A stretch of DNA of 64,000 nt from an uncultured Actinomycetes bacterium (GTDB lineage: Bacteria; Actinomycetota; CADDZG01; JAHWKV01): positions 67,480 to 131,479 of the forward strand of contig CAZCSK010000003.1 of assembly GCA_964501265.1 (NCBI GenBank). Direction: 5' to 3'. A program made the position numbers and the translations under genes. Positions 5,017-48,430 of the stretch are shown here, piece by piece (position 1 is the stretch's first letter; each line of letters starts with the position of its first letter). The notes under the pieces were generated by a model. That model was not told the DNA's origin. It searched no databases and was given only the letters and a program-made list of their open reading frames with translations.

Positions 5017-5058
5017 CGAAGTCTTCCTCTCTTTCAATCCTGCCTGCACTGATCAGCG
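5006..5058 (-). promoter_or_regulatory. Conserved leader element, paralogous copy of 3721-3773
   Basis: See 3721-3773. Roughly 85% identity over 53 nt spanning the 5' UTR, RBS and first codons. Confidence 0.3.
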
Positions 5059-5104
5059 AGTGAAGGTCGATAGGTAGGGCGGATTCTCGTAAACGCTTTC
5101 AGTG

Positions 5105-29609: not shown

Positions 29610-31054
29610 ATAGCTGGTTTGTCCGAGAAAGAAAGTTCCTGCTCAAACGCGTAGGCGGCTCGCAGCATTGTCGATTCATCGAGCGGCTTCGCCATGATCT
29701 GCAGTCCAACAGGCAGGCCATCTTCCGGCGCCAGGCCGCAAGGAACCGATATCGCCGCGGCGCCCGCAAGGGATGTCGGCACATTGCAGATGTCGGATAG
29801 GTACATCGTCAATGGGTCCTCGGTCTTCTCGCCAAACCGAAATGCGGTAGTGGGAGATGACGGCGAGATGAGCAGGTCGAAGTCCTTGTAGGCGCGCTCA
29901 AAATCCCGGATTATCAAAGTGCGGGCCTTCTGGGCCTTTCCGTAGTACGCGTCGTAATAGCCGGCGGAGAGCGAATAGGTGCCCAGCATGATTCGCCGTT
30001 TCACCTCGGGACCGAAACCCGCTGAGCGCGTGAGTGAGTTCATTGAGGTCACATCTTCGGCTTCGACCCGAAGCCCGTACCGGACCCCGTCGTAACGCGC
30101 CAGATTGGACGAAGCTTCCGCCGGAGCGATCAGGTAGTAGATGTCGATCCCATATTCGAATGTCGGCAACGACACCTCCCCAATCTGCGCCCCAAGTCCT
30201 TCCAATATCGCTACGGCTTCCTGGAACTTGGCGCGCACTCCGTCTTGAAGGCCCTCTCCGGAGATCTCCTTCACCACACCGATTCGAAGTCCGTCGATCC
30301 CGCCCTTCAAGGCGGCGCTGTAATCGGGAACCTCCCCAGGCAACGATGTGGAGTCGCGGGGATCATGGCCCGCGATTGCCTGAAGAAGCAGGGCTGCGTC
30401 GGTGACGTCGCGAGTTATCGGGCCAGCTTGATCGAGCGAGCTTGCGAACGCGATCAACCCATACCGCGATACGAGCCCGTAAGTTGGCTTCAATCCCACT
30501 ACCCCGCAAAGGGCTGCCGGTTGGCGGATACTTCCGCCGGTGTCGGTGCCCAGACTCCAAATCGCCTGACCCGACGCCACCGCCGCAGCGCTTCCCCCGG
30601 AGGACCCTCCCGGAACGCGCGAGGTATCCCATGGATTGGAAGTCGGAAAGAATGCCGAGTTCTCAGTCGACGAGCCCATCGCGAACTCGTCGAGATTAGT
30701 CTTGCCCGTCATCGGCATACCGGCCCGGTCCAGTCGTTCGGCAACGGTGGCGGAATAAGGAGGAACGTAGTTTTCTAGCATCTTCGAGGAAGCCGTCGAC
30801 CGAATCCCCTTTGTGCAGATGATGTCCTTCAACGCGACGGGGACGCCCATGATGGGGCCGAAGTCTTGACCGCCTGCGTCCACCAACTTGGCTTTGGCCC
30901 TGGCGGAGTCTGCAGTCTGAGTAACGAAGGCATGGATCGATTCCTCCACCTCTTCCATGCGCCCGACCACCGAGGAGGTGACCTCACTCGAACTCACGTC
31001 GCGGCTTCGAATCATCCCGGCGAGCGCGGCCCCAGTATGTTGCCAGAGATGCAT
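29591..31054 (-). CDS. gatA: Glu-tRNA(Gln) amidotransferase subunit A (amidase signature family)
   Basis: [10 protein letters not shown] and the [12 protein letters not shown] amidase signature. Confidence 0.85.
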
Positions 31055-31347
31055 CAGGGAAGGTCGAGGATTCTTGGGACCCGGAAATGACCGGACTCGG
31101 CCAAAGGTGCGTTAGCGAGGGCCTCGTCCTGAGTTAGGGAAGTGGCAACCTCATCGGGCCGCAAAACGTTGGAAAGCGAAATGGCATGCGAAGTCGGCTC
31201 CACGTCTTCCGTGTCCAGGGATGTGACGCGCGCGGCGTGGTCAAGGATCTTCGACAACTGGGCTCGCAAGGTTTCGGCCTCGTCATCGGAAAGCTCGAGC
31301 CGAGCCAAGCGAGCGACGTGATCGACGTCCTTTCGTGTGATCGACAT
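31054..31347 (-). CDS. gatC: Glu-tRNA(Gln) amidotransferase subunit C
   Basis: [23 protein letters not shown], typical GatC. Start trimmed to Met37 of the ORF (31347); the ORF-track start is 31455. Confidence 0.7.
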
Positions 31348-31387
31348 GGGCCAAAGCTTATCTTGGGAACCCGGTATCCTTCCCGGC

Positions 31388-32026
31388 ATGACTGCACAAA
31401 GGCTGACCCGGCAAGGCCATAAGCGACGGCAGCAACTGATGTCCGAAGCCGCCAAACTCTTTGCTCACAGCGGCTATTACGCGACGCGCGTCATCGATAT
31501 CGTCAAATCGGCAGGTGTTGCAAAGGGTCTCTTCTATTGGTACTTCGAAAACAAGGAGACGCTGTTTCGCGAGATCATCAAGGCCGCCCGGGACGACCTC
31601 CGGCGCGCGCAGGCGCGAGCAATCGAAGGTGAGAAAGATCCAATCCGCCGGATCTCGAAAGGCATCTCGGCTTCCCTTCGCTTCAACGCTGCTAACGAAC
31701 ATCTGTATCTTCTCTTTCGGTCTGCCGGCAGGCAGGACCGATTCGCCGCGCTGATAGAAGAGTCGCAACTGATTCACGCCGAAGATACTGCGGCTCACAT
31801 TTCAGCGGCGATCGAGCGGGGCCAGTTGCCCGCCGGCGATCCCTTGCTACTGGCACATGGAGTCGTCGCAACCGTCTTTCAATTCGCACGTCTTTCCGCA
31901 TCCGGTTCGATCAGCATGAATCTCGATGACCTGTGCAAGTTCGTCGACTCTTACTGTCTGCGGGCACTTGGGGGGTCAATCAGCGTCCCGGTGGCGCCGG
32001 TTTTGCGCAAGAGAGCGAGAGCCTAA
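31388..32026 (+). CDS. TetR/AcrR family transcriptional regulator
   Basis: HTH: LFAHSGYYATRVIDIVKSAGVAKGLFYWYFENKE. Immediately upstream of and overlapping hemE. Confidence 0.7.
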   Translation: MTAQRLTRQGHKRRQQLMSEAAKLFAHSGYYATRVIDIVKSAGVAKGLFYWYFENKETLFREIIKAARDDLRRAQARAIEGEKDPIRRISKGISASLRFNAANEHLYLLFRSAGRQDRFAALIEESQLIHAEDTAAHISAAIERGQLPAGDPLLLAHGVVATVFQFARLSASGSISMNLDDLCKFVDSYCLRALGGSISVPVAPVLRKRARA

Positions 32027-33045
32027 TCTCACACGACCTTTTCCTGAAAGCGTGCCGCCGCGAGGCGGTAGACACAACGCCGGTCTGGTTGATGCGCCAA
32101 GCAGGACGATGCATTCCCGCCTACCGCGCGTTGCGCGCAAAAAATAGCTTTGGCGACCTGATTAGCAGGGCAGACCTGATCACCGAGGTAGTCCTCATGC
32201 CGCTTGAGGTTTTTGATGTCGACGCTGCGATTCTGTTCGCCGACATCATGACACCGGTCGCGGCGCTCGGAATCGAATTCGACATTGTCGAAGCAGTCGG
32301 CCCGGTGGTCAAGAACCCGATCGATTCTCTTCGCTCGGTGGATAAGCTCAACGTCGTTTCGACTGCCGAAGCCGTTCCCCAACTCTTCGAAGCCATCAAG
32401 ATGGTGAGAGAAGCCACACCAAAACCTTTGATCGGATTCGCTGGCGGGCCATTCACGCTGGCCTCATACTTGGTGGAAGGCAAGGCCGATCGCGCTTTCA
32501 CAAAGACCAAGGAGATGATGCAGTCCGATCCGGCCACTTGGCATGCGCTCCTGGCCAAACTGACCCAGGTTCTTATTGATTACCTGCGCGAGCAGGTACG
32601 CGCCGGAGCTCAGGCCCTGCAGATATTCGATTCATGGGTGGGCGCGCTGAGCGCAGCCGAATATAAAGAGTTTGCCCTCCCCTACTCGAGACTCATTTTC
32701 GAGCAAACCGCAGACCTGGGTGTGCCGCGGATCCACTTCGGGACCAATACGGCCGACCTGCTCGAGCTGATGGCGTCGCCGGAACCGGAGGTGATCGGAG
32801 TCGATTGGCGTATCCCTCTCGATGAGGCTTGGCGGCGCATCGGTCCTGAAATAGCAATCCAGGGCAACCTCGATCCGGCCGTCCTGCTTGCCTCACCCGA
32901 CGCAGCCGCCACCGAAGCCCGCGAGATCCTTCGTCGCGCTGGCGGGCGAGCGGGACACATCTTCAACTTGGGGCACGGCGTCGCGCCGAACACGCCGGTG
33001 GACAACATAAAAGCGCTCGTCGATGCGGTGCGCTCTTTCCGATGA
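31933..33045 (+). CDS. hemE: Uroporphyrinogen decarboxylase
   Basis: PVWLMRQAGR signature. GTG start at 31933 per ORF track; alternative in-frame TTG at 31951. Overlaps the tetR 3' end. Confidence 0.75.
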   Translation: MQVRRLLLSAGTWGVNQRPGGAGFAQESESLISHDLFLKACRREAVDTTPVWLMRQAGRCIPAYRALRAKNSFGDLISRADLITEVVLMPLEVFDVDAAILFADIMTPVAALGIEFDIVEAVGPVVKNPIDSLRSVDKLNVVSTAEAVPQLFEAIKMVREATPKPLIGFAGGPFTLASYLVEGKADRAFTKTKEMMQSDPATWHALLAKLTQVLIDYLREQVRAGAQALQIFDSWVGALSAAEYKEFALPYSRLIFEQTADLGVPRIHFGTNTADLLELMASPEPEVIGVDWRIPLDEAWRRIGPEIAIQGNLDPAVLLASPDAAATEAREILRRAGGRAGHIFNLGHGVAPNTPVDNIKALVDAVRSFR

Positions 33046-33929
33046 AAACCGCAGTGTTGCTGATGGCATACGGAAGCCCGCGCAACTCAGGCGAAATCGA
33101 ACCCTACTTCACAGACATTCGCGGGGGCCGGCCCCCTAGTGCCGAAGCGCTCCAGAAACTGAATGATCGCTACGCGGCTGTCGGAGGCAACTCCGGGTTG
33201 AATCAGATTACCGAGCGACAAGCCGCAGCGCTCGCGAAGCATCTGGGTCCCTCCTTCGCCGTCTTTATCGGGATGAAGCATTGGCATCCATTCATCCGCG
33301 ACGCGGTGAGCAGAATAGTCGATGAAGGTTTTGACAAGATCGTTGGGTTGGTGCTGGCCCCCCATTTTTCGTCAAAGAGCATCGGTGAGTATGAGAGGCG
33401 GATTCTGGACGCACTCGGGACTCGCCAAGTTGCGATCACGATGGTCAAGTCATGGTACGACGAACCTGTCTTCGTAGATCTCGTCGCCGCCAATTTGCGC
33501 GAAGCGGTCGAGGGCTGGCAAGAAGCGCGCGTCTTTTTTACAGCGCACAGCATCCCGGCTCGAATTGTTGAGAACGGCGATCCTTATCGCGAGCAGCTGG
33601 CGGATTCCGCGAAGTTGTATGCGGAAGCGGCGAATATCGACGATTACGAAATTGCGTGGCAAAGCGCAAGCGCCACTGGGGAGCCGTGGATCGGTCCGGA
33701 CATCGCCGACTCGCTCGAACTCTTTGGCGCATCCGGCGGGAAAAGAGCCGTGATAGCTCCGGTAGGTTTCGTCTCCGATCACTTGGAGATCCTGTACGAC
33801 ATCGATCTTGAGGCCAAACAAGGCGCCGAGGCCATCGGGATCGAGTTCCGTCGTATTCGGTCCCCCAATGACGATCCTCGGTTTATTTCCGCCCTTGGCA
33901 ACATCGTGATGAGATACGCTCACCCTTGA
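33042..33929 (+). CDS. cpfC: Ferrochelatase (coproporphyrin ferrochelatase type expected in this lineage)
   Basis: MAYGSP N-terminal motif and ferrochelatase fold hallmarks. 295 aa, no C-terminal extension. Confidence 0.7.
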   Translation: MKTAVLLMAYGSPRNSGEIEPYFTDIRGGRPPSAEALQKLNDRYAAVGGNSGLNQITERQAAALAKHLGPSFAVFIGMKHWHPFIRDAVSRIVDEGFDKIVGLVLAPHFSSKSIGEYERRILDALGTRQVAITMVKSWYDEPVFVDLVAANLREAVEGWQEARVFFTAHSIPARIVENGDPYREQLADSAKLYAEAANIDDYEIAWQSASATGEPWIGPDIADSLELFGASGGKRAVIAPVGFVSDHLEILYDIDLEAKQGAEAIGIEFRRIRSPNDDPRFISALGNIVMRYAHP

Positions 33930-35125
33930 TGATCGTGGCACTTTCGGCCGGACGGGACTCCCCGGCAGAACTCCGGGGCCGCCTGGCTCTGGATGAACCG
34001 CGCTTGCGTGAATTACTTGAAGCTCCACGGCCGGGGATCTCGGAAATGGCCGTCCTATCGACATGTCATCGGACTGAGATCTACGCCACTGGCGACGGTT
34101 TCGACGCCGATGTAGTCCACGCCGTCGCAGCGACCTTGCCCGGCCTTGCCCCAACCGACCATCACGATGTCAGATTCCTGCACGGTCCCGAAGCGGTCGA
34201 GCACTTGTTTCGAGTCGCCTGTGGGCTCGACTCCTTGGTGATCGGTGAGTCCCAGGTGCTGGGACAGGTGCGTCGTGCGCTCGTTCTCGCACAAGAAGCG
34301 AAAGCGGTTGGCCCAGTGCTGACGAACATCTTCGGACGGGCGTTGCGCCTCGGCCGCGATGTGCGGACTCAGACATCGCTCGGGCGGCTGAGCGCGTCGA
34401 TTGGCTCGGTCGCAGCCGATTATCTGGAAGCTCGCTTCGAGGGCTTGGCGGGTCGCAAGGCTGTGATCGTCGGGGCCGGCGAAGCTGCGGCCGACGCGGC
34501 CAAGGCTATCTGGAAAGCGGGCGCGCAACTTGTCATCGTGAGCCGAACGACCGAATCGGCGGAAAGTCTGGCGGCTCTAGTCGAGGGGACCTTCGCCCCG
34601 ATGGGCGAACTCGAACAGGCGCTTGATGGATCCGACTTTGCCGTTGTCGCCGTCCTGGGCGGAACGCTGATCGAGGCCTCGCAGCTTCCCAGGCGATCTC
34701 CACAAGCCCCCTACCTTGTTTTGGACCTGTCGCTACCGCGCGCGATTGAAGCGAACGTTCGAGACGACGTCGAGGTCAGAAATCTCGAAGAGATTCCCGG
34801 CCCCCGGGGGCCGGAGGTCACAGACGCCGTAATAGAGGCGGAGACTCTTGTTAAAAAGGAGGTCGCGGATCTCCTACATTGGGCCGATACGCGTGCGGCC
34901 GGACCCACGATCCGCGAGCTGCACAAATTTGCCGAGGAACTGGTGCGCGATGAGGTCGAACGCGCCGCGCCGGGCCTCCAACTCGATACCACTCAGATTG
35001 AAAGCATTGAAGCGTTGACGATGCGGGTAGTCAACAAACTGCTTCACGGACCAACAACGGAGCTTCGACGAGCCGACCACGAAACCCTCGCAACCATCCG
35101 AAGGATCTTCCACCTCGGAGAATAA
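33926..35125 (+). CDS. hemA: Glutamyl-tRNA reductase
   Basis: STCHRTEIY active-site motif (Cys nucleophile) and NADPH-binding GAGEAA. Confidence 0.8.
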   Translation: MMIVALSAGRDSPAELRGRLALDEPRLRELLEAPRPGISEMAVLSTCHRTEIYATGDGFDADVVHAVAATLPGLAPTDHHDVRFLHGPEAVEHLFRVACGLDSLVIGESQVLGQVRRALVLAQEAKAVGPVLTNIFGRALRLGRDVRTQTSLGRLSASIGSVAADYLEARFEGLAGRKAVIVGAGEAAADAAKAIWKAGAQLVIVSRTTESAESLAALVEGTFAPMGELEQALDGSDFAVVAVLGGTLIEASQLPRRSPQAPYLVLDLSLPRAIEANVRDDVEVRNLEEIPGPRGPEVTDAVIEAETLVKKEVADLLHWADTRAAGPTIRELHKFAEELVRDEVERAAPGLQLDTTQIESIEALTMRVVNKLLHGPTTELRRADHETLATIRRIFHLGE

Positions 35126-35126
35126 A

Positions 35127-36020
35127 TTGGACACGCGTCGGCGCGTGGGCGCTTCCCAATTCAAGGCGGGAACCCGAGGCAGCCGTCTGGCGCTGGCGCA
35201 AACAACCTGGGTGATCGAACAACTCGCTCGGCATGCGGGTCTAGAAGTCGAGCCCGAAGTCATCGAAATGAGGAATGATCACGAACCCCTTGGCGACGGT
35301 ATCTTCGTCAAAGACATTCAACGTGCACTACTCGAAGGCGATGTCGACCTTGGCGTGCACTCTCTCAAAGACCTTCCCACCACGCCCGTCGAAGGCCTCT
35401 TGATTGCGGCGATCCCTGTACGGGCCGATCCGCGCGAGGCTCTAGTGGGAGCGACGCTTGAATCGCTTCCCGAAGCCGCACGGGTTGGAACATCGAGTCC
35501 GCGTCGCAAGGCGCAGCTGCTTAACCTTCGGCCCGACCTTCGCGTGGATGCAATAAATGGAAATGTAGATACGCGAATACGCAAGGTGGAAGCGGGCGAC
35601 TATGACGCCGTGATGCTCGCCGCGGCGGGCCTTGAGAGGCTAGGGCTCAAGGCCGACGAATTCCTACCGATCGACCGCGTGCTGCCCGCACCCGGACAGG
35701 GTGCCCTGGCGGTCGAGGTGCGCGCGGTCAACGGCGATCTCGCAGAGCTCGTTTCCCGCATCCACGACTCACAGACCCGGAACTGTGTGGTGGCCGAACG
35801 AGTCGTTCTTTCAGAGCTGGGGGGAGGATGTCTGTTGCCGGTGGCGGCTTACGGACGCATGGAAGACGGCAAGCTGGTTTTAGACGCCACGGTGATCTCG
35901 GCGGATGGCAAGGCTCGAATCACGGAGCGCACCGAAGGCGACCCCGCCAAATATCTGGCGCTCGGCAGACAAGTCGCGCGTGGTCTCATCAAACAAGGCG
36001 CTCGAACCCTGCTCAAATGA
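35127..36020 (+). CDS. hemC: Hydroxymethylbilane synthase (porphobilinogen deaminase)
   Basis: GTRGSRLAL...VHSLKDLPT motifs. Confidence 0.85.
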   Translation: MDTRRRVGASQFKAGTRGSRLALAQTTWVIEQLARHAGLEVEPEVIEMRNDHEPLGDGIFVKDIQRALLEGDVDLGVHSLKDLPTTPVEGLLIAAIPVRADPREALVGATLESLPEAARVGTSSPRRKAQLLNLRPDLRVDAINGNVDTRIRKVEAGDYDAVMLAAAGLERLGLKADEFLPIDRVLPAPGQGALAVEVRAVNGDLAELVSRIHDSQTRNCVVAERVVLSELGGGCLLPVAAYGRMEDGKLVLDATVISADGKARITERTEGDPAKYLALGRQVARGLIKQGARTLLK

Positions 36021-36820
36021 GTCTCGCGGGAAAACGGATTCTCGTGCTACGCCCCGCGCATCAAGCAGCGGAGTTGGCAGGACGCATCGAAGCGATGGGT
36101 GGACTGCCCATCGTAATTCCCGCTATTGAGGTTGAGCCCGCGCACGACTTTAACCACATAGACGAGCTGCTCGCAAAGCTGGACGAGTTCGCCTGGCTCG
36201 TGTTCACGAGCGCGAACGGAGTCGATGTGATCGCGCCGCGCATCGCCACCCAACCTGCGAACCCCCCGAAGTCAATTGGGGGGCCCGGGGGGGTAGCAGC
36301 CCCCTTCGGTAAAGACCCGCGCGCGCCAGAAGGTGCGAACCCCCCGAAGTCAATTAAGGTCGCCGCTGTCGGTCCGGGTACGAGCGCGGCTTTAAAACTT
36401 CACGGTTTCACAACCGATTGGATGCCGTCGAGTTTCGACATCGAGACACTAGCAAACACGTTGCCGGGCACGGGGCGCGTCTTGATGGTCCGGGCGCTAA
36501 GCGCTGACGCCGAAGGCGACGAGATTCTCACGCGCCGGGGGTTCGGGGTCGAACGTATCGACGCTTATCGCACGAAGCAAGTGAATGCGGTCGAGCTGGC
36601 GGAGGCCGTCACCAATATTGACGCCGTCGCATTCACGAGCGCGTCGACCGTCGAATCCTTCAGGGCCGCAATCCCCGGCGAGATAGGCGCCGTGGTCTGC
36701 AGCATCGGCCCAGCCACGAGTGCCGCGTGCGCCCGCGCCGGGCTCAAAGTCGGAGTACAAGCCCCTGAGCACACTATCCCCGGTCTCGTAAAAGCCATGG
36801 ACGAATATCTGACAAACTAG
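36017..36820 (+). CDS. hemD: Uroporphyrinogen-III synthase with a 26-aa in-frame insertion
   Basis: RILVLRP...FTSANGV typical HemD. Start at the ATG 36017 overlapping the hemC stop (ATGA); ORF-track start 35828 rejected. Confidence 0.65.
   Translation: MSLAGKRILVLRPAHQAAELAGRIEAMGGLPIVIPAIEVEPAHDFNHIDELLAKLDEFAWLVFTSANGVDVIAPRIATQPANPPKSIGGPGGVAAPFGKDPRAPEGANPPKSIKVAAVGPGTSAALKLHGFTTDWMPSSFDIETLANTLPGTGRVLMVRALSADAEGDEILTRRGFGVERIDAYRTKQVNAVELAEAVTNIDAVAFTSASTVESFRAAIPGEIGAVVCSIGPATSAACARAGLKVGVQAPEHTIPGLVKAMDEYLTN
36256..36355 (+). repeat. 22-bp perfect direct repeat (tgcgaaccccccgaagtcaatt) at 36256-36277 and 36334-36355 flanking a 56-bp GC-rich hairpin-prone segment; net 78-bp in-frame insert in hemD
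   Basis: Direct reading of sequence. Encodes ANPPKSI...ANPPKSI. Internal G6CCCG7...C5TTCGG has stem potential. Confidence 0.8.
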
Positions 36821-36826
36821 AGTTCC

Positions 36827-37798
36827 ATGAGCGAGGCACGACTGCGGCGTTTGCGTCGCAACGAAAACATCCGCCGACTGGTCGGCGGCCCGCGCCTCGA
36901 CCCCGGCCGCTTCGTCTTGCCCGTGTTCGTCGCCGATGGGATCGAGACGGAGACACCCTTAAGTTCCCTGCCCGGCCACTACCATTGGCCCGCGTCGCGA
37001 GTGGGCGTCATCGCTAAGGAGGCCGAGTCGTTGAGCATTCCGGCCCTTCTTATTTTCGGCGTCACCAAGAAGAAAGACGAGCGAGGCTCGCAGGCTTGGG
37101 CATCCGACGGCCCAGCCCAGCAGGCGATATCGGAAGCCAAGGCCGCGGCTCCGGATCTAGTTGTGTTCGCCGACACCTGTCTTTGCGGATACACATCGCA
37201 CGGACATTGCGGGTTCGTCGAGAACGAAGAAGTCCTGAACGACGCAACCGTAGAGTTGCTCGCCAAAACCGCCGTCTCGCAAGTGGAAGCCGGCGCCGAT
37301 TTCGTCGCCCCTTCCGACATGATGGACGGGCGGGTGCGCGCAATTCGCGATGCACTCGATAGCAGCGGTCACCCGACCGCCGGCATCATGAGTTACTCGG
37401 CCAAGTTCGCATCTTCAATGTACGGGCCCTTTCGTGAAGTGGCCGATTGCGCGCCCACATTCGGCGACCGGCGCGGCTATCAGATCGACCCGTCCGCGGG
37501 GCGGCAGGCCCTCGCCTCGATAGAGCGCGACATCAAGGAAGGCGCCGACATCGTGATGATCAAGCCAGCCCTGCCTTATCTCGATGTGATTCACGAAGCA
37601 CGGCGCCGGTTCGACATTCCGATCACCGCCTACAACGTGAGCGGTGAGTTTGCGATGGTAAAAGCAGCGGCCGAGAGGGGCTGGATCGATGAGAAACAAG
37701 CTGCCCTCGAGAACCTGACCTCGATCGTTCGGGCAGGGGCGGACTTCGTGATCACCTATCACGCCCTCGAGGCCGCTCGATGGCTCGGCGAACATTAA
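36827..37798 (+). CDS. hemB: Porphobilinogen synthase (delta-aminolevulinate dehydratase)
   Basis: Active-site region DTCLCGYTSHGHCG and the Schiff-base lysine region. Confidence 0.85.
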   Translation: MSEARLRRLRRNENIRRLVGGPRLDPGRFVLPVFVADGIETETPLSSLPGHYHWPASRVGVIAKEAESLSIPALLIFGVTKKKDERGSQAWASDGPAQQAISEAKAAAPDLVVFADTCLCGYTSHGHCGFVENEEVLNDATVELLAKTAVSQVEAGADFVAPSDMMDGRVRAIRDALDSSGHPTAGIMSYSAKFASSMYGPFREVADCAPTFGDRRGYQIDPSAGRQALASIERDIKEGADIVMIKPALPYLDVIHEARRRFDIPITAYNVSGEFAMVKAAAERGWIDEKQAALENLTSIVRAGADFVITYHALEAARWLGEH

Positions 37799-39067
37799 TT
37801 GAACGAATACTCGAGGGCTCGGGCGGTGATGCCAGGCGGAGTTTCATCTCCCGTCCGCGCCTTCGGCGCGGTCGGCGGCGACCCCATTTTCATTAGATCG
37901 GGAAGTGGAAGTCGTGTAACCGACATCAAGGGCCGCGAGTACATAGACATGCTCGCGTCTTGGGGGCCGCTGATTCTGGGACACGCCGACACAAAGGTGG
38001 TCGAAGCAATAAACCAAGCTGCGGCGCGGGGAACATCTTTCGGAGCGCCGACGACTACAGAGACCGACCTCGCCGAGGCAATCGTGGCCGCACTGCCGTC
38101 GGTCGAGATGGTGCGGTTTGTATCTTCGGGAACCGAGGCGGCGATGAGCGCGATTCGCCTCGCACGAGCGGCCACCGGCAAGCCGAAGATACTCAAGTTC
38201 GCAGGCTGCTACCACGGACACGCGGACGCTCTTCTGGTGTCCGCTGGCTCGGGGCCGGCAACCCTCGGCCTCCCCGATTCGCCTGGCGTAACCGAGGGCA
38301 CTCGAGCCGATACCGTCGTGGCTCACTTCAACTCAACCGAATCGGTGACGCAAGCCTTCGATCAATTCGGCCCGGACCTAGCGGCGATCATCGTCGAACC
38401 AGTCGCGGCCAACATGGGCGTGGTGCCACCGGCATCGGAGTTTCTTGCACAACTGCGCCGCCTCTGCGACATCAACGAATCCCTGTTGATCTTCGACGAA
38501 GTCGTGACCGGCTTTCGCGTCTCGTACGCGGGCGCCCAAGGAATGTATGGGATCGATCCTGATCTCACCATCCTCGGCAAGATCATCGGCGGAGGTTTGC
38601 CGGTGGGCGCGTACGGGGGCCGGCGCGATCTCATGGAGATGATCGCCCCTTCGGGTCCCGTCTATCAAGCGGGAACGCTGTCGGGCAATCCGGTCAGCAT
38701 GGCCGCCGGCCTCGCCACCATCAACCAACTTAGTCGGAACGATCCCTATGAGCGGCTAGAGAAGATGGGAACAGTGCTACAAGAGGGGCTCGAAGCGGCT
38801 GCCCACGATTCAGCAACGCCAGTGACCGTGCAGCGAGTAGGCTCGATGCTGACGGTATTCTTCACCGATGCGGCCCCAGTTGATTTTCAAGGTGCGAAAC
38901 GCTCCGATACTGCGGCCTTCGCCAAGTTCTTTCATTCGATGCTTAAACAGGGCGTCTACTGGCCGCCCTCGCAATTTGAGGCGGCGTTCCTGAGTACCGC
39001 CCACACGGAAGCCGACATCGAGCAAGTCATTTCCGCCGCTGCAATTTCATTTGAAAGGATAAGTTGA
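37799..39067 (+). CDS. hemL: Glutamate-1-semialdehyde 2,1-aminomutase
   Basis: N-terminus MPGGVSSPVRAF and class-III aminotransferase motifs. Confidence 0.85.
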   Translation: MNEYSRARAVMPGGVSSPVRAFGAVGGDPIFIRSGSGSRVTDIKGREYIDMLASWGPLILGHADTKVVEAINQAAARGTSFGAPTTTETDLAEAIVAALPSVEMVRFVSSGTEAAMSAIRLARAATGKPKILKFAGCYHGHADALLVSAGSGPATLGLPDSPGVTEGTRADTVVAHFNSTESVTQAFDQFGPDLAAIIVEPVAANMGVVPPASEFLAQLRRLCDINESLLIFDEVVTGFRVSYAGAQGMYGIDPDLTILGKIIGGGLPVGAYGGRRDLMEMIAPSGPVYQAGTLSGNPVSMAAGLATINQLSRNDPYERLEKMGTVLQEGLEAAAHDSATPVTVQRVGSMLTVFFTDAAPVDFQGAKRSDTAAFAKFFHSMLKQGVYWPPSQFEAAFLSTAHTEADIEQVISAAAISFERIS

Positions 39068-39753
39068 TGGCTGAAGATCGTAAAGTGATGCGTTACGCGT
39101 TCTATTCTGTGGATTCCTCCTGGCGAAATCTTCCCGATGAGGAGCGCACGCTTCACAAAAAGGAGTTCATCGAAGTCGTATCCCACGCACCTTGTGAAGT
39201 GCACCCCTATTCCACGGTGGGCCTGCGCGCCGATTCGGATCTCGCCCTTTGGGAAATCGCGGACGGGGCGGAGCAAATTCAAAACTTTCAGGCCGACCTC
39301 AACGCCACCGCCCTAGGGCGAGCGCTGAAGCCTAGCCACTCATTCCTGGCGATGACCAAGAAGTCCACATACTTGAAAGATCATAAGCACGAAGGCCAGG
39401 AGTTCAACATGCCGGCCGGACCGAAGGGCAGCTCCTACCTGTTCGTCTATCCGATGGACAAACTGCGCCCGTGGTATCGCCTGCCCTTCGAGGAGCGCCG
39501 CAAGATCATGGGAGCGCACTTCAAGACCGGTCATCACTACCCAGGGATAGCAATCCACACGGGTTACTCATTTGGCATAGACGACCAAGAGTTCGTGGTC
39601 GCATTCGAAGGTGAATCTCTCGGCGAATTCTTGGATCTGGTGCAGGAGTTGCGGGAGTCGGAGTCGTCGAGTTACACGGCCCGCGATGTCCCCATCTTTA
39701 CCTGCATTAAGATGCCCCTGGAACAAATCCTCAACCAACTGGATGGAGCGTGA
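39064..39753 (+). CDS. chdC: Coproheme decarboxylase (HemQ/ChdC, chlorite dismutase family)
   Basis: 229 aa, N-terminal YAFYSV...WR, chlorite-dismutase-like. Terminal gene of the heme operon. Confidence 0.7.
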   Translation: MMAEDRKVMRYAFYSVDSSWRNLPDEERTLHKKEFIEVVSHAPCEVHPYSTVGLRADSDLALWEIADGAEQIQNFQADLNATALGRALKPSHSFLAMTKKSTYLKDHKHEGQEFNMPAGPKGSSYLFVYPMDKLRPWYRLPFEERRKIMGAHFKTGHHYPGIAIHTGYSFGIDDQEFVVAFEGESLGEFLDLVQELRESESSSYTARDVPIFTCIKMPLEQILNQLDGA

Positions 39754-39773
39754 ATCGAGCCGGATTGGGGGTT

Positions 39774-40169
39774 CTATCTCGGAGCCACAACCCGTAGGCC
39801 CAAGCCGAGCGCAGCTTCAGCCATCCTCTTGTCGTAAGTGACGACCTCCTCTAACTCCGATCCCAAAGCGAGAGCCGATGCCAGGTGTATGGCGTCGAGG
39901 GTTCTGAGGGTCAGGGGTTCGAGGAAGGCTGCGCGCTCGAGCAACTCCTCATCAATCGTCAACAGATCTAATCGTCTGAGCACATCGCGGGCCCTTAGAA
40001 GAGGCTCGGGCCCAATACCGTAAGCGGCCCTTAGAACCTCCGCACGAGCCAACGCGCTCGACACTCTTCGTCCGAGCAACTGCCAATACCGACGCAGGGC
40101 AGTCGATTCCGGCTCTTTGGCGACAAGTTTCAGCAGAGCGGAGGAATCTAGGTAGACGATCGATGCCAT
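39774..40169 (-). CDS. vapC: Type II toxin VapC (PIN domain ribonuclease)
   Basis: MASIVYLDSSALLKL with conserved acidic PIN residues. 131 aa, directly downstream of the antitoxin gene. Confidence 0.7.
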   Translation of the reverse strand: MASIVYLDSSALLKLVAKEPESTALRRYWQLLGRRVSSALARAEVLRAAYGIGPEPLLRARDVLRRLDLLTIDEELLERAAFLEPLTLRTLDAIHLASALALGSELEEVVTYDKRMAEAALGLGLRVVAPR

Positions 40170-40445
40170 CTAGCGCTCGGACTTCCGCATTTCCTCAAGG
40201 ATCTCCGAGAGTAGCCGGGAGCCTTTCGGGAGACGAATCGGCGGAGGGAGTTCGGCCAGATCCTTCTCCGCCTCTCGAAGCTTGCCCGATGCCCTGAGCC
40301 GTTCCCACGCAGTGTCCTCACGGATGGGGACCAGATGGGCTACCGGGCGGCCGCGATCCGTCACCTCAAAGCTCTCCCCGCGCATGACCCGTGAGAGAAA
40401 CTTGCTGGCATTTTGCCGCAGTTCGCGCACCCCGATACGGTCCAT
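40170..40445 (-). CDS. vapB: Type II antitoxin (Phd/YefM-VapB family)
   Basis: MDRIGVRELRQNASKFLSRV...FEVTDRGRPVAHLVP, typical Phd/YefM N-terminus. Stop abuts the vapC start. Confidence 0.65.
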   Translation of the reverse strand: MDRIGVRELRQNASKFLSRVMRGESFEVTDRGRPVAHLVPIREDTAWERLRASGKLREAEKDLAELPPPIRLPKGSRLLSEILEEMRKSER

Positions 40446-40446
40446 G

Positions 40447-40461
40447 TGCTACATAGTAGCA
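40447..40461. promoter_or_regulatory. 6-3-6 palindrome TGCTAC-ATA-GTAGCA adjacent to the vapB start codon; candidate TA autoregulatory operator
   Basis: Perfect inverted repeat 2 nt upstream of the vapB ATG (40443-40445). TA operons are typically autoregulated at such sites. Confidence 0.3.
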
Positions 40462-40607
40462 TATCAATCTCCTTTAGAAGGAAGCGCATATCTTCAATTG
40501 TAGGGATGGGGTGTGACATCGCCTTCGCGCGAGGGATAGTTCTTGGGATCGGTGTATTAGGATGCCGCTGGAGCCAATCCTCAACCAACTGGATGGAGTG
40601 TGATCGC

Positions 40608-40907
40608 ATGCTGCGAATGGCTATCTACTATCGGCCCTCAGAAGACTCGGAAGCCTTTGAGAAACGTTACCTAGAAGGACACCTGCCGCTCGTGCAGGCT
40701 TACGACAACATCAAGGATACGAAGTTCTTCAAGGTGTCACGATCGATCATGGGCGAGTTCCCGTACTCCCACGCGTTCGTCGGATCGTGGGCCGACAAGG
40801 ACGGCTGGAAGTCCGATATGAACTCAGACAAGGCCAAAGCCGCTACTGAAGACGCCCAGAGCTTCGCCCCGGCCTTCGACGTGGTGGTCTTCGAAGAACT
40901 AGGCTAA
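40608..40907 (+). CDS. Small dimeric alpha+beta-barrel (EthD/Dabb-like) protein, tentative
   Basis: About 100 aa starting MLRMAIYYRPSEDSEAFEKRY, composition typical of the EthD-like stress family; weak call. ORF-track upstream extension to 40413 rejected. Confidence 0.35.
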   Translation: MLRMAIYYRPSEDSEAFEKRYLEGHLPLVQAYDNIKDTKFFKVSRSIMGEFPYSHAFVGSWADKDGWKSDMNSDKAKAATEDAQSFAPAFDVVVFEELG

Positions 40908-41009
40908 CTAGTTCCTTCGGGCGCCAAAAAACGCCCTTGGGCCTTCACCTCCAGTTGTTTCGGGCCGACTTATCTTTGGAGGCACGTTCCCGCCCATGGA
41001 GGTTCCCCG

Positions 41010-41780
41010 TTGAAAAGACTCGCCACTCTGAGCGCGATTTTGATCTTCGCCGCTGGATATATAGGACTGACGGCCACGCCCGCCCACGCCAAGTGCACGG
41101 ACGTGAAGTTCAGCAAGTCCAACTATCACGTGAACGAAGTAGACGGGGAAGTGGCGATCACGATCAAACGTGATATCAGTCTGCTCGGATGCCCTGGGAC
41201 GTTGAACTACAGCACCCAAGACGACAGCGCCACCGCGCCTTTCGATTACACGCAAACGAGCGACGAGTACATTTTTACCGAACCTACGCAGTCGACATAC
41301 ACGTTCACTATTCCGATCGTGAATGATGTCCTCCTTGAAGGCCCGGAGAGATTCAAGGTGAGCTTCGAGGCCTTCAACGACGCAACGACCGAACGCGGGA
41401 CTGCGACCGTCACGATCGCCGATAATCGCTTCGCTACTCCACCGCCTCCTCCTCCGCCTTCGACCACGACTTCGACTTCCGGTTCCTCTTCATCAGTCGT
41501 CTTGTCCAACAAACCGGCCCGGTCGGGGTCAACCCCCGCTGCAGCACCTTCCCCTCCGATTCAGCAGGAGCCGGTTGAGGCCGAGCCCGCGATCCAGATC
41601 GAATCCGAATCAGCTCCCATTGTGGCCCGCTCTCTCGCTTTGGCACAAGGAAAGGACCGAAACATGAGCGGAAAAAAGCTTTGGGCTTTTCTGCTGGTCG
41701 TACTGCTCGCCGCGACAGCGTTTTTACTCGTCGCGTGGCGTGTTCGTAGGAGCCCAAGAGAACACTTCAGTACTCTCTAG
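41010..41780 (+). CDS. Surface protein: signal peptide + Calx-beta domain + Pro/Ser/Thr linker + C-terminal TM anchor
   Basis: TTG start with GGAGG RBS. Calx-beta-like pattern (Y.V.E..G.V.I.R...DGTA-like DDSATAPFDY...F.V). C-terminal LWAFLLVVLLAATAFLLVAWRVRR. Confidence 0.5.
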   Translation: MKRLATLSAILIFAAGYIGLTATPAHAKCTDVKFSKSNYHVNEVDGEVAITIKRDISLLGCPGTLNYSTQDDSATAPFDYTQTSDEYIFTEPTQSTYTFTIPIVNDVLLEGPERFKVSFEAFNDATTERGTATVTIADNRFATPPPPPPPSTTTSTSGSSSSVVLSNKPARSGSTPAAAPSPPIQQEPVEAEPAIQIESESAPIVARSLALAQGKDRNMSGKKLWAFLLVVLLAATAFLLVAWRVRRSPREHFSTL

Positions 41781-41836
41781 ATCCGAGGATTGCCCGCGTC
41801 GAGTACTCTTGAGGTACCGCCCCGGGGAGGAACGAG

Positions 41837-42553
41837 ATGAGGAAGTTTGTCGCTCTTGTCGCCATGTTGATCCTGACAGCCACCTTCTTAGTTGTTTCAG
41901 CCGATCCTGCCGCAGCCGCTTGCCATGAAGCAGCTTTTAGCCCCACAACTCAGCAGGTCAACGAGAGCGCCGGGACTGTGAAGTTGAAGGTCATTCTCGT
42001 GGGCGGTGCTTCAACCTGCTCGGGTACGGTCAATTACCAAACAGAGAACGGAACAGCTGAAGGAGGGCAAGATAAGGATTTTGCCCCTGCCCAGGGATCT
42101 CTCACTTTCGTGGCGAACGACGATCGGCAGGAGGAGATCACCGTCCAGATCTTGGAGGACACGAACTTCGAGAACAACGAGACTTTCAAAGTCAAGCTCA
42201 CCGGATGCAACGGCGCGATCACAGTTTGTTCCAGCCAGGCAACCGTCACTATCGCCGACAACGACTCGGCACCGTCTCCCCCTCCGCCCGCTACGACTTC
42301 TCCGAGTCCGAAGAAGTCTCCGTCCCCATCTCCCTCACCTTCGCCTTCGCCGTCGCCGTCCCCAAGCCCTACTGAATCAGAGGACCCTGAGGAATCGCCT
42401 TCGGCTTCACCCGAGGCCTCGGCTTCGCCGAGTCCCCTCATCCAAACCCAGGGCAAGTCCGGCGGCGGCAAGAAGGTGGCGATCATCGCCCTAATCGCCG
42501 CGCTGGTTGCGGGCGGCGCTGGATTTGGTCTCTGGAAGTTACGCCAAACTTAA
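41837..42553 (+). CDS. Paralogous Calx-beta surface protein with (SP)n linker and C-terminal TM anchor
   Basis: GGGAGGAACGAG RBS. Calx-beta-like core (VNESAGTVKLKV...NGTAEGGQDKDF). SPSPSP low-complexity linker. C-terminal GGGKKVAIIALIAALVAGGAGFGLWKLRQT. Confidence 0.5.
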   Translation: MRKFVALVAMLILTATFLVVSADPAAAACHEAAFSPTTQQVNESAGTVKLKVILVGGASTCSGTVNYQTENGTAEGGQDKDFAPAQGSLTFVANDDRQEEITVQILEDTNFENNETFKVKLTGCNGAITVCSSQATVTIADNDSAPSPPPPATTSPSPKKSPSPSPSPSPSPSPSPSPTESEDPEESPSASPEASASPSPLIQTQGKSGGGKKVAIIALIAALVAGGAGFGLWKLRQT

Positions 42554-45741: not shown

Positions 45742-46584
45742 TTGCATCGACGTCTGCTCGCGCTCGCGTGTTTAAGCGCTCTCACACTTTCGGGATGCAG
45801 CCGACTCGGATTGGTTCGCCGCTCCGACGCTCCCCCTAGCCCGCGTCCCACCGCGGCCCAGATTGGCGATCCGTCGGCAACCGCAATCGAAGTCCCTTCC
45901 CCAACTCCTCCTCAGGCGTCGCGAGCGCCGGGGGCCCCGCCCGGCGACTACACCAAGATCAACGATTTCGGCGATGTCGGATCCGCCTCCAGGCAGTTGC
46001 TCCGCCCTTCCCCGTTTACCGAGATCATTGTTGAGATCGATTTTCTGGCGGGGTTGGAGCCGAGTCAGAAGGCGGTCACCAACGTCATCGCAAGCCTGAA
46101 AAGAGTCACGGGCAAAAGGATCGTCCTTGAAGGAGCGAACCAGATGACTCCGACAAGGTCGGGCTGTTACTCTTCGGGCGATGTCGCCGCGAGCGCCGCA
46201 AGCCGGTCGATCTCGAGCGAAGGCAAGAGAGCCGCGATCTACGTCTTCTATCTGAACGTCTATTTCTGCGACAACGACAAAGCCCTCGGCGCTGCGACCA
46301 ACGCGACCGTGGCGGCGGTATTTCCGGAGACTTACCGTGGGAAGGGCGGTACCGATGCGGCTGTGGAAGAAACCGTACTCCTGCATCAAATCGGCCACTT
46401 GCTCGGCCTCGTTAACTTTTCCTACGTGGGCATTCGCCCCCACCACGACGGAAACGGGCATTCTAAAAACCCGAACTCGGTAATGCACCCCTCGGCGGAA
46501 ACGGACTTCTCAAGAGGCGCCCCGCTCACGTTTGATTCTGACGATTTGGCCGACATGGCCGACCTCGCTGCCGGACGCCTCTAA
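45742..46584 (+). CDS. Probable lipoprotein with metzincin-like domain; variant motif HQxxHxxGL...HSKNPxSVMH (catalytic Glu replaced by Gln)
   Basis: TTG start with AGGAGA RBS. Signal peptide + Cys (LTLSGCS). HQIGHLLGLVN...HSKNPNSVMH. C-terminal FDSDDLADMADLAAGRL. Confidence 0.5.
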   Translation: MHRRLLALACLSALTLSGCSRLGLVRRSDAPPSPRPTAAQIGDPSATAIEVPSPTPPQASRAPGAPPGDYTKINDFGDVGSASRQLLRPSPFTEIIVEIDFLAGLEPSQKAVTNVIASLKRVTGKRIVLEGANQMTPTRSGCYSSGDVAASAASRSISSEGKRAAIYVFYLNVYFCDNDKALGAATNATVAAVFPETYRGKGGTDAAVEETVLLHQIGHLLGLVNFSYVGIRPHHDGNGHSKNPNSVMHPSAETDFSRGAPLTFDSDDLADMADLAAGRL

Positions 46585-46628
46585 ATGGGAAGGCACGGTA
46601 GACTTTGAATCTAGTGGGGAGGCAAACC

Positions 46629-47579
46629 TTGAAGATTCGTAAACCGGCCGCAGTTCTGATGGCATTGCTCCTTGTAGCTGGAGCTTGCTCAAAGGCCAAG
46701 GAAGTCAAGACAGGACCGCGCACCGGAAAATACGGCGACCCGAACGCCGTCGATGCCTCTCCCACGGCTAAGGCGGCGGCGGGCGGAGCGCCAGCCGGAG
46801 GAACCTCAACTGGAGGCACGTCCGGCTCGGCTCCAACGAGTGCCACGACCAAGCCGACTCAAAAGGCAACGTCGTCCGGAGGATCGACTGGGGGGGCAGC
46901 CGCGGGGCCGAAACTAATCAACGACGCTGGGGGCAACGCCTGCAAGCCGATCCTTCAGCAAAGCGCCTACACCGAGATCGTTGTAGAGGTCGACTGGGTT
47001 GCGGGCCGCGAACCCAACCAACCCGCCATCAATCATTTGGTTAGTCTGTTAAAGCGTGAGACGGGGAAGCCCGTAACCCTGAAGGGCGGAAACCTACTTC
47101 CGGCCCAGGGTGGCAAATACGACGGCGAAAAGGTCCATCAAATCGCCGCTGGACGAAACACAAAGAGCGAAGCTCCGGTCGCGTCCCTTTGGGTCGGATA
47201 TCTTGACGGGGCTCCTCCGGCCCCTCCTGGCTACGCCACTTTGGGCACCGCTTATGGGGGTACCGTTTCCACTGTGTATAGGGACAGCATCAAGGCCACG
47301 GGGTTTCCGGACCTGGTCCAAGATGGGATCGAAAGAGCCGTCCTCATTCAGGAGATTTTTCATCTTCTTTGCATGACAAACATTGGCTACAAGAGCCCTC
47401 GGGACCATGAAGACAAGGACCACCCTCGTCATTCCAAGAACCCGAGCTCGGTCATGTATTGGGCCCTGATGACTCAGGACGGAATCGTCCCTTTCATCAC
47501 CAATGGCGGATCCCCTCCGGCTGATTTCGACGCCGACGACCGCGCCGACCTGGCCGATCTAAGGGCCGGCAGACTCTAG
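46629..47579 (+). CDS. Paralogous probable lipoprotein; degenerate motif QEIFHLLCM...HSKNPSSVMY (first zinc-ligand His lost)
   Basis: TTG start with GGGGAGG RBS. LLLVAGACS signal/lipobox-like. Conserved YTEIVVEVDWVAGREP block and C-terminal FDADDRADLADLRAGRL. Confidence 0.5.
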   Translation: MKIRKPAAVLMALLLVAGACSKAKEVKTGPRTGKYGDPNAVDASPTAKAAAGGAPAGGTSTGGTSGSAPTSATTKPTQKATSSGGSTGGAAAGPKLINDAGGNACKPILQQSAYTEIVVEVDWVAGREPNQPAINHLVSLLKRETGKPVTLKGGNLLPAQGGKYDGEKVHQIAAGRNTKSEAPVASLWVGYLDGAPPAPPGYATLGTAYGGTVSTVYRDSIKATGFPDLVQDGIERAVLIQEIFHLLCMTNIGYKSPRDHEDKDHPRHSKNPSSVMYWALMTQDGIVPFITNGGSPPADFDADDRADLADLRAGRL

Positions 47580-47581
47580 GG

Positions 47582-48430
47582 ATGCGCATCCGGGCGGGCG
47601 CCCTGGCGGCCGCCCTTTTGCTTCTGGCTGGGGCCTGCAGCCCGCGCCCTCCGACGCGGCCCCCAGAACCTCGGAGCGGCAGTTACGGATCAGGCGTTCG
47701 GTTGCCCGCCGACCGGCCCTCCCCAGCACCTGAGGCAACAACCGCCGCGGACACGCCAGAGACGAGAGACGATCGAGCGCGTGTTGACGATCTCGACTCT
47801 GTTGGGCAGGCCGCCCGAGCCCTATTGCAGCCTGGGCCCTTCTCTCAAATTGTCGTCGAAGTGGATTGGGTCGCCGGAAGGGAGCCCACGGCAAAGGCGA
47901 AGGAAATACTGGCAGCGCGCCTCCAAGAAGTGAGCCATAAATCCGTCAAGTTTGCAGGCGGCAACCCGATCAACCCAGGGGGCCCATGGACGATCGACGA
48001 CATCGCAACGCTGTCGCTTAATCGCAATACCCACAGCGTCGAGCCAAGCTTAAGTCTTTACATTGCGTTTCTCGATGGGAGGGCGCAGGAGAACAAGTTC
48101 GCCCTCGGGCGGGTAGTTGCCTCAACCGTCATCGCCATTTTTCCAGATGTGATCCGCAATTTCACTCCTCCGAACGTGGACGTTGCCGACGTTCAGGCCG
48201 GCTCGATGGTCCATGAACTGGGTCACCTGTTGGGCCTGGTCAACCTCATTTACGACAGCCCCCGCCCACACGGCGACCCGAACAACCCGCAACATTCCAA
48301 GAATCCAAAGTCGGTGATGTATCACGCCTACGAGCAGTCCTTTGGCGCCAGCGTTTTCGGCGCCCCGCCCAACCAATTCGACGCCGACGACCTCGCAGAC
48401 TTGGCTGACCTGGCGGCCGGCCGCCTCTAA
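47582..48430 (+). CDS. Paralogous probable lipoprotein with intact HExxHxxGL...HSKNPKSVMY (putative active zinc metalloprotease)
   Basis: LLLLAGACS signal. HELGHLLGLVN...HSKNPKSVMY: the third-His-to-Met spacing (+8) matches the matrixin Met-turn. C-terminal FDADDLADLADLAAGRL. Confidence 0.5.
   Translation: MRIRAGALAAALLLLAGACSPRPPTRPPEPRSGSYGSGVRLPADRPSPAPEATTAADTPETRDDRARVDDLDSVGQAARALLQPGPFSQIVVEVDWVAGREPTAKAKEILAARLQEVSHKSVKFAGGNPINPGGPWTIDDIATLSLNRNTHSVEPSLSLYIAFLDGRAQENKFALGRVVASTVIAIFPDVIRNFTPPNVDVADVQAGSMVHELGHLLGLVNLIYDSPRPHGDPNNPQHSKNPKSVMYHAYEQSFGASVFGAPPNQFDADDLADLADLAAGRL

Follow-up and report, generated by a model that had tools for sequence, protein, structure and literature searches.

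A vapBC toxin-antitoxin operon at the junction of chdC and an EthD-family gene in uncultured Actinomycetota, inserted with duplication of 51 bp of chdC

How does a two-gene cassette that has no mobility gene come to lie between two chromosomal genes whose signals overlap? This question is raised by a vapBC toxin-antitoxin (TA) operon in a 64,000-nucleotide (nt) stretch of DNA from an uncultured Actinomycetes bacterium (assembly GCA_964501265.1, contig CAZCSK010000003.1), the whole of which we call the window and number from its first letter. Here vapBC lies between chdC, the last gene of a heme operon, and a small EthD-family gene, and is bracketed by imperfect direct repeats that copy the 3' end of chdC. 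The integration of TA cassettes into chromosomes is an acknowledged open question, and a review describes TA insertion loci as plastic and the mechanism of integration as 'unelucidated' (PMC7167474). An earlier reading of the window, made from its sequence alone (the sequence-only reading), proposed that vapBC had been inserted by a mechanism that duplicated the target, and that it had been acquired recently. By comparing empty, filled and rearranged alleles of this locus, we demonstrate that the cassette was inserted once and that its insertion duplicated the final 51 bp of chdC, and we consider how such a duplication could arise and why it would be kept.

A repeat search of the window recovered the two copies as one family of direct repeats, 51 nt long, 88% identical (45/51) and 850 nt apart from start to start (coordinates in Table 1). 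The sequence-only reading had described a pair of about 45 bp; that pair is real and its 45-mers are indeed identical at 40/45 positions, the second copy lies where it had been placed, the first lies 3 nt away (39709-39753, not 39706-39750), and the repeat extends a further 6 nt in the 5' direction (TGCATT/TGTATT). The core of the repeat is an exact 23-mer, AATCCTCAACCAACTGGATGGAG, which occurs twice in the 64 kb, once in each copy (39726-39748 and 40576-40598), and for which 100 dinucleotide-preserving shuffles gave 0 matches with up to 3 mismatches allowed. Copy 1 encodes the peptide CIKMPLEQILNQLDGA followed by the chdC stop codon. In the same frame copy 2 reads CIRMPLEPILNQLDGV and a stop, lies outside any gene, and has its former stop codon, TGA, 4 nt 5' of the EthD ATG at 40608. 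The copies are separated by 799 nt (39754-40552) which, as the sequence-only reading had stated for an interval of roughly 800 bp, contain only the PIN-domain gene, the Phd/YefM antitoxin gene and a palindromic operator.

If the cassette was inserted, relatives without it should have chdC followed directly by the small downstream gene, with one copy of the repeat. The genomes nearest to the window are metagenome-assembled genomes (MAGs) of uncultured Actinomycetota, and contigs of close relatives were reached through proteins that cluster with ChdC and EthD of the window. Five of these contigs (L164, L165-L167 and L168) have the predicted empty site, in which chdC, ending in ...GGATGGAGCGTGA, carries one 51-mer that is followed by 'tcac' and the EthD ATG. 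These contigs are 90-97% identical to the window over the 3' part of chdC; the single 51-mer of L164 is identical to copy 1 of the window at 51/51 positions, and L168 comes from a sister sample of the one that yielded a contig identical to the window. Aligned to the window by BLAST, the empty-site contigs each give two alignments that overlap by exactly 51 nt (for L164, 1-377 with 39377-39753 and 327-722 with 40553-40950), as expected when filled and empty sites are compared after an insertion that duplicated its target. The proposal of the sequence-only reading is thus borne out both by the five empty sites with their single 51-mer and by the exact overlap. More distant relatives (L003, L004 and L008; 62-71% ChdC identity) also have hemB-hemL-chdC with the EthD gene directly behind.

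The filled allele is present in independent assemblies from different samples, namely the window, which has a 100% match to a Logan contig (SRR6868923), and two contigs from one ENA sample (L083 and L172). Both ENA contigs carry the same cassette in the same orientation and each is ~93% identical to the window across it; their lineages differ from the window by ~7-10% of nucleotides. All three alleles have the same left junction, TGA-A[T/C]CGAGC... (in ATCGAG and ACCGAG variants, the hyphen marking the junction), which is absent from the empty sites, and all three have copy 2, with the copy-2-specific states G15 and C23. Since both the junction and these states are shared, we conclude that the insertion arose once. 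The insert is 719 nt long in L083 and L172 and 799 nt long in the window, which alone has an 80-nt segment between the vapB promoter and copy 2. The short alleles also lack 2 nt inside the repeat, and the window therefore keeps the older state of the repeat's 5' end. The forms of the locus can be recognized by the junction k-mers GATCTCCTGCTAGGATGCC (short filled), GGGATCGGTGTATTAGGATG (window filled), GGAGCGTGATCACATGCTGAG (empty) and AGGGCCCTGCATTAGGATG, the last belonging to a third, TetR-joined form that is described below.

Why would such a duplication be kept? At the empty site 4 nt separate the chdC stop codon from the EthD ATG, and the GGAG Shine-Dalgarno sequence of the EthD gene lies within the final codons of chdC (GAT GGA GCG TGA). 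An insertion without duplication would therefore either truncate chdC or part the EthD gene from its ribosome-binding site. Copy 2 holds this GGAG and, at repeat positions 6-11, the hexamer TAGGAT, which fits the actinobacterial -10 pattern TANNNT. In the six detached copies of the 51-mer (those of the window, L083 and L172 and of the three TetR-joined contigs, L169-L171), neither TAGGAT nor GGAG-N-GTGA varies, and the distance between them is the same throughout. Substitutions elsewhere in the detached copy of L169 number 16, and the chance that every one of them would miss the ten positions concerned is ~0.014. This conservation suggests that copy 2 serves as a functional leader of the EthD gene that provides its ribosome-binding site and probably its promoter. 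Just 14 nt separate the TA operator from TAGGAT downstream of it in the short alleles, so that the TA complex might, speculatively, influence the EthD gene. A more general rule may follow: where the end of one gene holds the translation signals of its neighbour, only insertions that duplicate this end survive, and long 'target duplications' can then reflect selection and not a transposase.

The cassette itself looks like a complete, selectively maintained TA operon that is functional, judging from its genes and their conservation. The predicted toxin has a PIN domain, in which the acidic residues D8, E44, D92 and D113 are invariant in an alignment of 21 members, and the adjoining antitoxin gene lies upstream of the toxin gene and encodes a DNA-binding N-terminal domain, as is expected of a VapBC-type system; the vapB stop codon abuts the vapC start (40170/40169). 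Among PDB chains VapB matches M. tuberculosis VapB46 (6jqy, 6e-10) and chain A of 3dbo, and none matches VapC at E<=1e-3. Across the three alleles, dN/dS (the ratio of nonsynonymous to synonymous divergence) is ~0.13 for vapC and 0.3-0.45 for vapB. On the vapB strand the operator palindrome holds a -10-like hexamer, TACTAT (TACnnT), 7 nt 5' of the ATG, which suggests that the operon is leaderless and autoregulated. The palindrome GTGCTAC-N3-GTAGCAC stands directly 5' of the ATG in 9 of 80 VapC-family loci from unrelated contexts, in which the sequence farther upstream is unrelated; the palindrome therefore belongs to the cassette. Within the 80-nt segment of the window, at 40513-40540 of the + strand, GTGACA-16-GATAGT resembles a sigma-70 promoter that would face the EthD gene. 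Comparison of the segment with the TetR end, chdC, the EthD gene, the start of the heme operon and every fetched locus gave no significant similarity. No Rfam family was found (E<=1) in 39500-41100. The chdC product scores 117 bits against NCBIfam HemQ_actino, under the equivalog cut-off.

Table 1. Features of the vapBC locus and its surroundings in the window
Feature	Position	Strand	Remarks
TetR-family regulator gene	31337..32026	+	close upstream of the heme operon
Heme-operon block from ferrochelatase to chdC without the final 51-52 nt	32024..39701	+	lacking at this locus in L169-L171
chdC (hemQ-like), a chlorite-dismutase family gene that ends the heme operon	39067..39753	+	Pfam PF06778, 1e-52; follows hemB, hemL
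Direct repeat copy 1	39703..39753	+	functional 3' end of chdC: last 16 codons and TGA
Left end of the insert, 20-nt spacer from chdC stop to vapC stop (convergent genes)	39754..39773		junction TGAATCGAGCC
vapC, predicted PIN-domain toxin, 131 aa	39774..40169	-	Pfam PF01850, 2.1e-15, residues 5-120
vapB, Phd/YefM-type antitoxin, 91 aa	40170..40445	-	PF02604, 2e-9; TIGR01552, 2e-10
Operator palindrome GTGCTAC-ATA-GTAGCA(T)	40446..40462		touches the vapB ATG
80-nt segment, window allele only	40473..40552		exactly between vapB promoter and copy 2
Direct repeat copy 2	40553..40603	+	non-coding, displaced duplicate of the chdC 3' end; putative EthD gene leader
TAGGAT, -10-like hexamer, putative EthD promoter element	40558..40563	+	inside copy 2
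GGAG Shine-Dalgarno of the EthD gene	40595..40598	+	9 nt 5' of the ATG
EthD-family gene, 99 aa	40608..40907	+	NCBIfam TIGR02118, 39.1 bits (cut-off 30.5)

The proposal that the cassette is a recent acquisition does not hold. Two other lineages are filled, synonymous divergence (dS) of the cassette among the occupied alleles ranges from 0.12 to 0.36, each filled genome has 6 differences over the 51 positions of its two repeat copies, and the composition of the insert is that of its host. Its GC content is 0.588 (0.596 for the window), and GC content at third codon positions is likewise indistinguishable from the host; the sequence-only reading had suggested a comparison of this kind, and a host-like composition is uninformative on origin. 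Presence/absence polymorphism persists across lineages that are ~10% apart. Divergence across the locus is patchy. Between the window and L083, dS ranges from 0.15 to 0.59 by gene (0.23 for hemA), and between the window and L164 the 3' part of chdC is 97.3% identical (dS 0.096) and the EthD side 91.2% (dS 0.38), from which it follows that the group recombines and that gains and losses within it may have come in either order. The 51-bp repeats would themselves allow precise loss of the cassette, or re-integration of an excised circle, by homologous recombination, and a crossover within the 23-nt identical block would be expected to leave a product indistinguishable from the ancestral empty site.

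A third form of the locus was found in one NCBI MAG (L169) and in two ENA samples (L170 and L171). In these three contigs neither vapBC nor chdC is present at the locus, the 7.7-kb heme operon is missing from it and an orthologue of the window's TetR-family gene precedes the EthD gene, which still has the copy-2 51-mer in front of it. L169 aligns to the window in two blocks (1-1720 with 30256-31973 and 1797-3068 with 40595-41875). At the junction, the last sense codon of the TetR gene (window 32021-32023) is joined to the detached 51-mer, ...C-TGCATTAGGATGCC..., which corresponds to a join between 32021-32023 and ~39702 of the window (L169 1700-1810, L170 330-425, L171 70-165), and the TetR gene now ends at a TAG inside the 51-mer. 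The loss of the heme operon from this locus is an event independent of the vapBC insertion. The sequence-only reading had allowed that its second copy might be part of a conserved upstream region of the downstream gene and that this would speak against insertion. The first part stands, in that the 51-mer travels with the EthD gene in these contigs, and insertion is not refuted by it.

It is also noteworthy that the chdC breakpoint of L169-L171 lies 1-2 nt from the left edge of copy 2, and that the 80-nt segment of the window sits exactly at this edge, at the same breakpoint. Several candidate explanations can be given for this recurrence. Selection may favour the shortest leader that retains TAGGAT; a CCT microhomology is present at all three partners; the detached copies, which share G15 and T47, may have descended from a common ancestor and then suffered deletions ending at the same edge; the site may be fragile; or a site-specific process may operate that has not been recognised. 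A hairpin or fragile site was considered and set aside, as single-strand DNA folding gave unsupportive z-scores of -0.62 to +1.31. Variants of ChdC truncated at -16 aa, which would be expected had the heme operon moved elsewhere, were not found, the short homologues differing only at the N-terminus. We find it doubtful that recombination truly has a hot spot at the position 51-52 nt before the end of chdC, or that some unrecognised process, independent of a recombinase or acting in trans, docks there. On either reading the position would have been used at least twice independently. Its uses would be the insertion of vapBC with duplication and the excision or translocation of the 7.7-kb heme operon, and the 80-nt indel may be a third. 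If such a hot spot were real, it would open a way, defined by sequence, into the question of how 'naked' TA cassettes and blocks of genes move within chromosomes, and the recurrent breakpoint is the sole part of this locus that could lead to something new.

Signatures of mobility were looked for in and around the insert. Neither a recombinase nor a transposase is encoded in the 719-799-nt insert or, according to the Pfam lists of the neighbourhood, within ~7 kb of it; terminal inverted repeats are missing from the insert, and a tRNA search between positions 30 kb and 50 kb of the window gave none. The cassette is single-copy in the window, and other loci of the family have unrelated flanks. 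In a scan for flanking repeats, based on a VapC-alignment search of metagenome contigs, 80 loci were fetched and 53 were usable, the window, L083 and 9 scoring artefacts being left out. With mismatched flank pairs as the null, flanking direct repeats did not rise above chance in any of the 53 loci (highest raw score 15, 99th percentile of the null 14); the same scan scored 33 for the window and 28 for L083. A long flanking repeat is therefore not a property of this VapC family. A donor cassette was not found, the next-nearest VapC being 64% identical. A scan of viral contigs for the VapC family gave 2 weak relatives, and the VapC homologues in a plasmid collection are 39-48% identical and all mycobacterial.

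The insert was compared with known classes of mobile elements. Insertion sequences, miniature inverted-repeat transposable elements and transposons make target-site duplications of short, fixed length (2-14 bp); here the duplication is 51 bp, and terminal inverted repeats, a transposase and multiple copies are all lacking. An integron gene cassette, which would have an attC site at its end and an integron integrase or a cassette array, does not fit either, given that the repeats consist of chdC coding sequence and an array is lacking. Integrase-mediated islands enter a gene at its 3' end and bring a substitute for that end with them, so that attL and attR stand as direct repeats. The present locus resembles them in that its direct repeats equal the 3' end of the target gene and leave the target intact. 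It differs in having no tyrosine or serine recombinase gene inside the element, an insert of less than 0.8 kb and a protein-coding target whose end overlaps the ribosome-binding site of the next gene. As to end-joining, one close relative (L009, 2079-3941) has Ku and LigD-like genes for non-homologous end-joining 1.7 kb downstream of chdC, and none are encoded in the 64-kb window, which is uninformative on whether end-joining acted here.

What process, then, produced the filled allele? We consider it fairly probable that the TA operon entered by a one-off illegitimate insertion, independent of a recombinase, which duplicated the 51 bp in the same event and was passed by selection. A compact type II TA operon, made up of a PIN-domain VapC, a Phd/YefM VapB and its own operator and promoter, entered the chdC-EthD junction once, in an uncultured Actinomycetota lineage. 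The duplication of the final 51 bp of chdC left copy 1 to keep chdC complete, and copy 2 to keep the ribosome-binding site, and probably the -10 element, before the EthD gene. One possible route is template switching during replication or repair, resuming 51 nt behind the point of departure; another is that a staggered break captured a fragment and was then filled in. Selection for an intact chdC and an expressed EthD gene would filter the outcome, and the cassette would thereafter be a presence/absence polymorphism in recombining lineages, with the repeats permitting its precise loss or the re-integration of a circle. Given that the 53 other loci of the family are free of flanking repeats and that no recombinase is nearby, the duplication looks like a one-off illegitimate event. 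Several observations weigh against this interpretation. A duplication of 51 bp is far longer than ordinary transposition footprints, and direct evidence does not favour template switching over a staggered break. With no donor copy found, the original ends of the insert and any microhomology at the junctions cannot be defined. The empty alleles of the closest group could be revertants, given the uneven dS between the window and L164. Lastly, the use of the same breakpoint, to within 1-2 nt, in the rearrangement of L169-L171 and in the 80-nt indel is not predicted by a purely random one-off event.

The reuse of the breakpoint is what lends weight to site-specific recombination, in which the 3' end of chdC would be an attachment site or hot spot, the 51-mers would be equivalent to attL and attR, and vapBC would be a satellite mobilised in trans or the remnant of a larger element. 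Three different left neighbours meet the detached 51-mer within 1-2 nt (in the window this neighbour is the 80-nt segment, in L083 and L172 it is the vapB promoter, and in L169-L171 the end of the TetR gene), and a duplicated 3' end next to an intact target gene is the classic footprint of an integrase island. We nonetheless regard this as unlikely, since an integrase or transposase is missing from the insert and its neighbourhood, flanking repeats are absent from the 53 other loci of the TA family, folding predicts no significant secondary structure in the DNA of the site, and the event in L169-L171 is a junction or deletion and not an exchange of the att type, with a 51-mer that is chdC-like over its full length. 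A different possibility concerns the spread of the cassette and is compatible with a one-off insertion at its origin, namely that this genome received vapBC from a filled relative, by allelic replacement via homology in the flanks or by RecA-mediated integration of an excised circle, made up of vapBC and one 51-mer, into an empty chdC 3' end. The contrast between the chdC and EthD sides of the window and L164 points to a recombination boundary at or near the site, the range of dS by gene between the window and L083 is consistent with exchange, and the copy-2-specific changes lie to the left of the 23-nt identical block, where crossovers are expected. However, dS of the cassette falls within the range of the flanking genes, the sequences are short, and neither an excised circle nor a donor was observed, such that import is a real possibility toward which we do not lean. 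That a tandem 51-bp duplication came first, and that vapBC landed later between the copies, would explain why both neighbours survived, and short tandem duplications are common; yet this would take two events at one place and an intermediate that is unstable, a perfect tandem repeat, and none of 11 related alleles has two 51-mers without the cassette (0/11), which makes such an order very improbable. Scarcely credible is the view that there was no insertion, copy 2 being an element conserved upstream of the EthD gene and similar to the chdC end, or an assembly artefact. The 51-mer does accompany the EthD gene in three different contexts, but in the empty sites this element is the chdC 3' end itself, in a single copy, and the filled arrangement recurs in the window (with SRR6868923) and the two ENA contigs; the empty alleles refute it.

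Whatever the mechanism, the insertion of a TA operon into or beside an unrelated housekeeping operon is already well known, and this locus is a well-resolved further case. In E. coli, mazEF lies between relA and mazG, yafNO between dinB and yafP, and ccdO157 between folA and apaH (Fraikin et al. 2020, PMC7167474). As at these loci, a two-gene TA operon is found here in or beside an unrelated operon, with relatives that have the undisturbed gene pair and with no mobility gene; unlike them, the present locus has a defined 51-bp duplication of a gene 3' end, an uncultured Actinomycetota host and a polymorphism that extends over lineages ~10% apart. A module similar to ParE/ParD in Microcystis aeruginosa PCC 7806 is 'fenced' by two identical 152-bp direct repeats (Klemencic et al. 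2021, PMC7935541) and resembles ours in lying directly downstream of an unrelated gene between direct repeats. The Microcystis repeats are identical, intergenic and 152 bp long, with inverted repeats, whereas those described here are a diverged coding duplicate that includes the translation signals of the neighbouring gene, and the empty site is documented. The pairing of a PIN toxin with an antitoxin of the Phd/YefM fold is shared with VapBC46, VapBC47 and the 3dbo pair of M. tuberculosis; the mycobacterial plasmid homologues mentioned above are annotated as VapC47/VapB47 and prevent-host-death antitoxin, and their VapCs are no more than 39-48% identical to the predicted toxin of the cassette.

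The locus stands out for its documented empty sites, for a 51-bp coding duplicate that holds the neighbour's translation signals and for its persistence across diverged lineages. The alleles form a rare complete natural set, comprising empty sites, filled sites with two junction variants and a third, rearranged form, with the junctions resolved to the nucleotide, and they show a TA operon without a mobility gene entering between genes with overlapping signals, where the duplication preserved both. As an instance of how cassettes enter chromosomes it is clean and fairly ordinary.

The surroundings of the locus also vary. Downstream of the EthD gene the window has two genes for Calx-beta/Pro-rich membrane-anchored proteins (40908-42553), in a region that is rearranged among close relatives. 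In L165-L167 (L165 1400-1900), ~70 nt of the first of these genes are followed by genes for a pterin-4a dehydratase, YchF and an MNT/HEPN pair, and in L083 an FTR1 permease gene (4492-5337) is inserted downstream of the EthD gene. The MAG with the closest full-length ChdC match in a collection of species-representative genomes (L001, 79% identity) has tandem repeats of ~15 nt immediately 3' of the chdC stop codon (4690-4840), with ABC-transporter genes, and not the EthD gene, coming next. Elsewhere in the window, a 72-nt repeat at 47507 and 48358, 851 bp apart, was considered as a second case of the same kind and dismissed. It represents the conserved C-terminus of three tandem paralogous genes (45742-48430, ~280-324 aa) with lipoprotein-like N-termini, which mimics the spacing at vapBC. 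Finally, five tandem copies of the 18-nt unit CCCGAAAGGGGACTTGCA occupy 24462-24551, where the frame of the ATG at 24422 would give an N-terminal (PKGDLH)x5.

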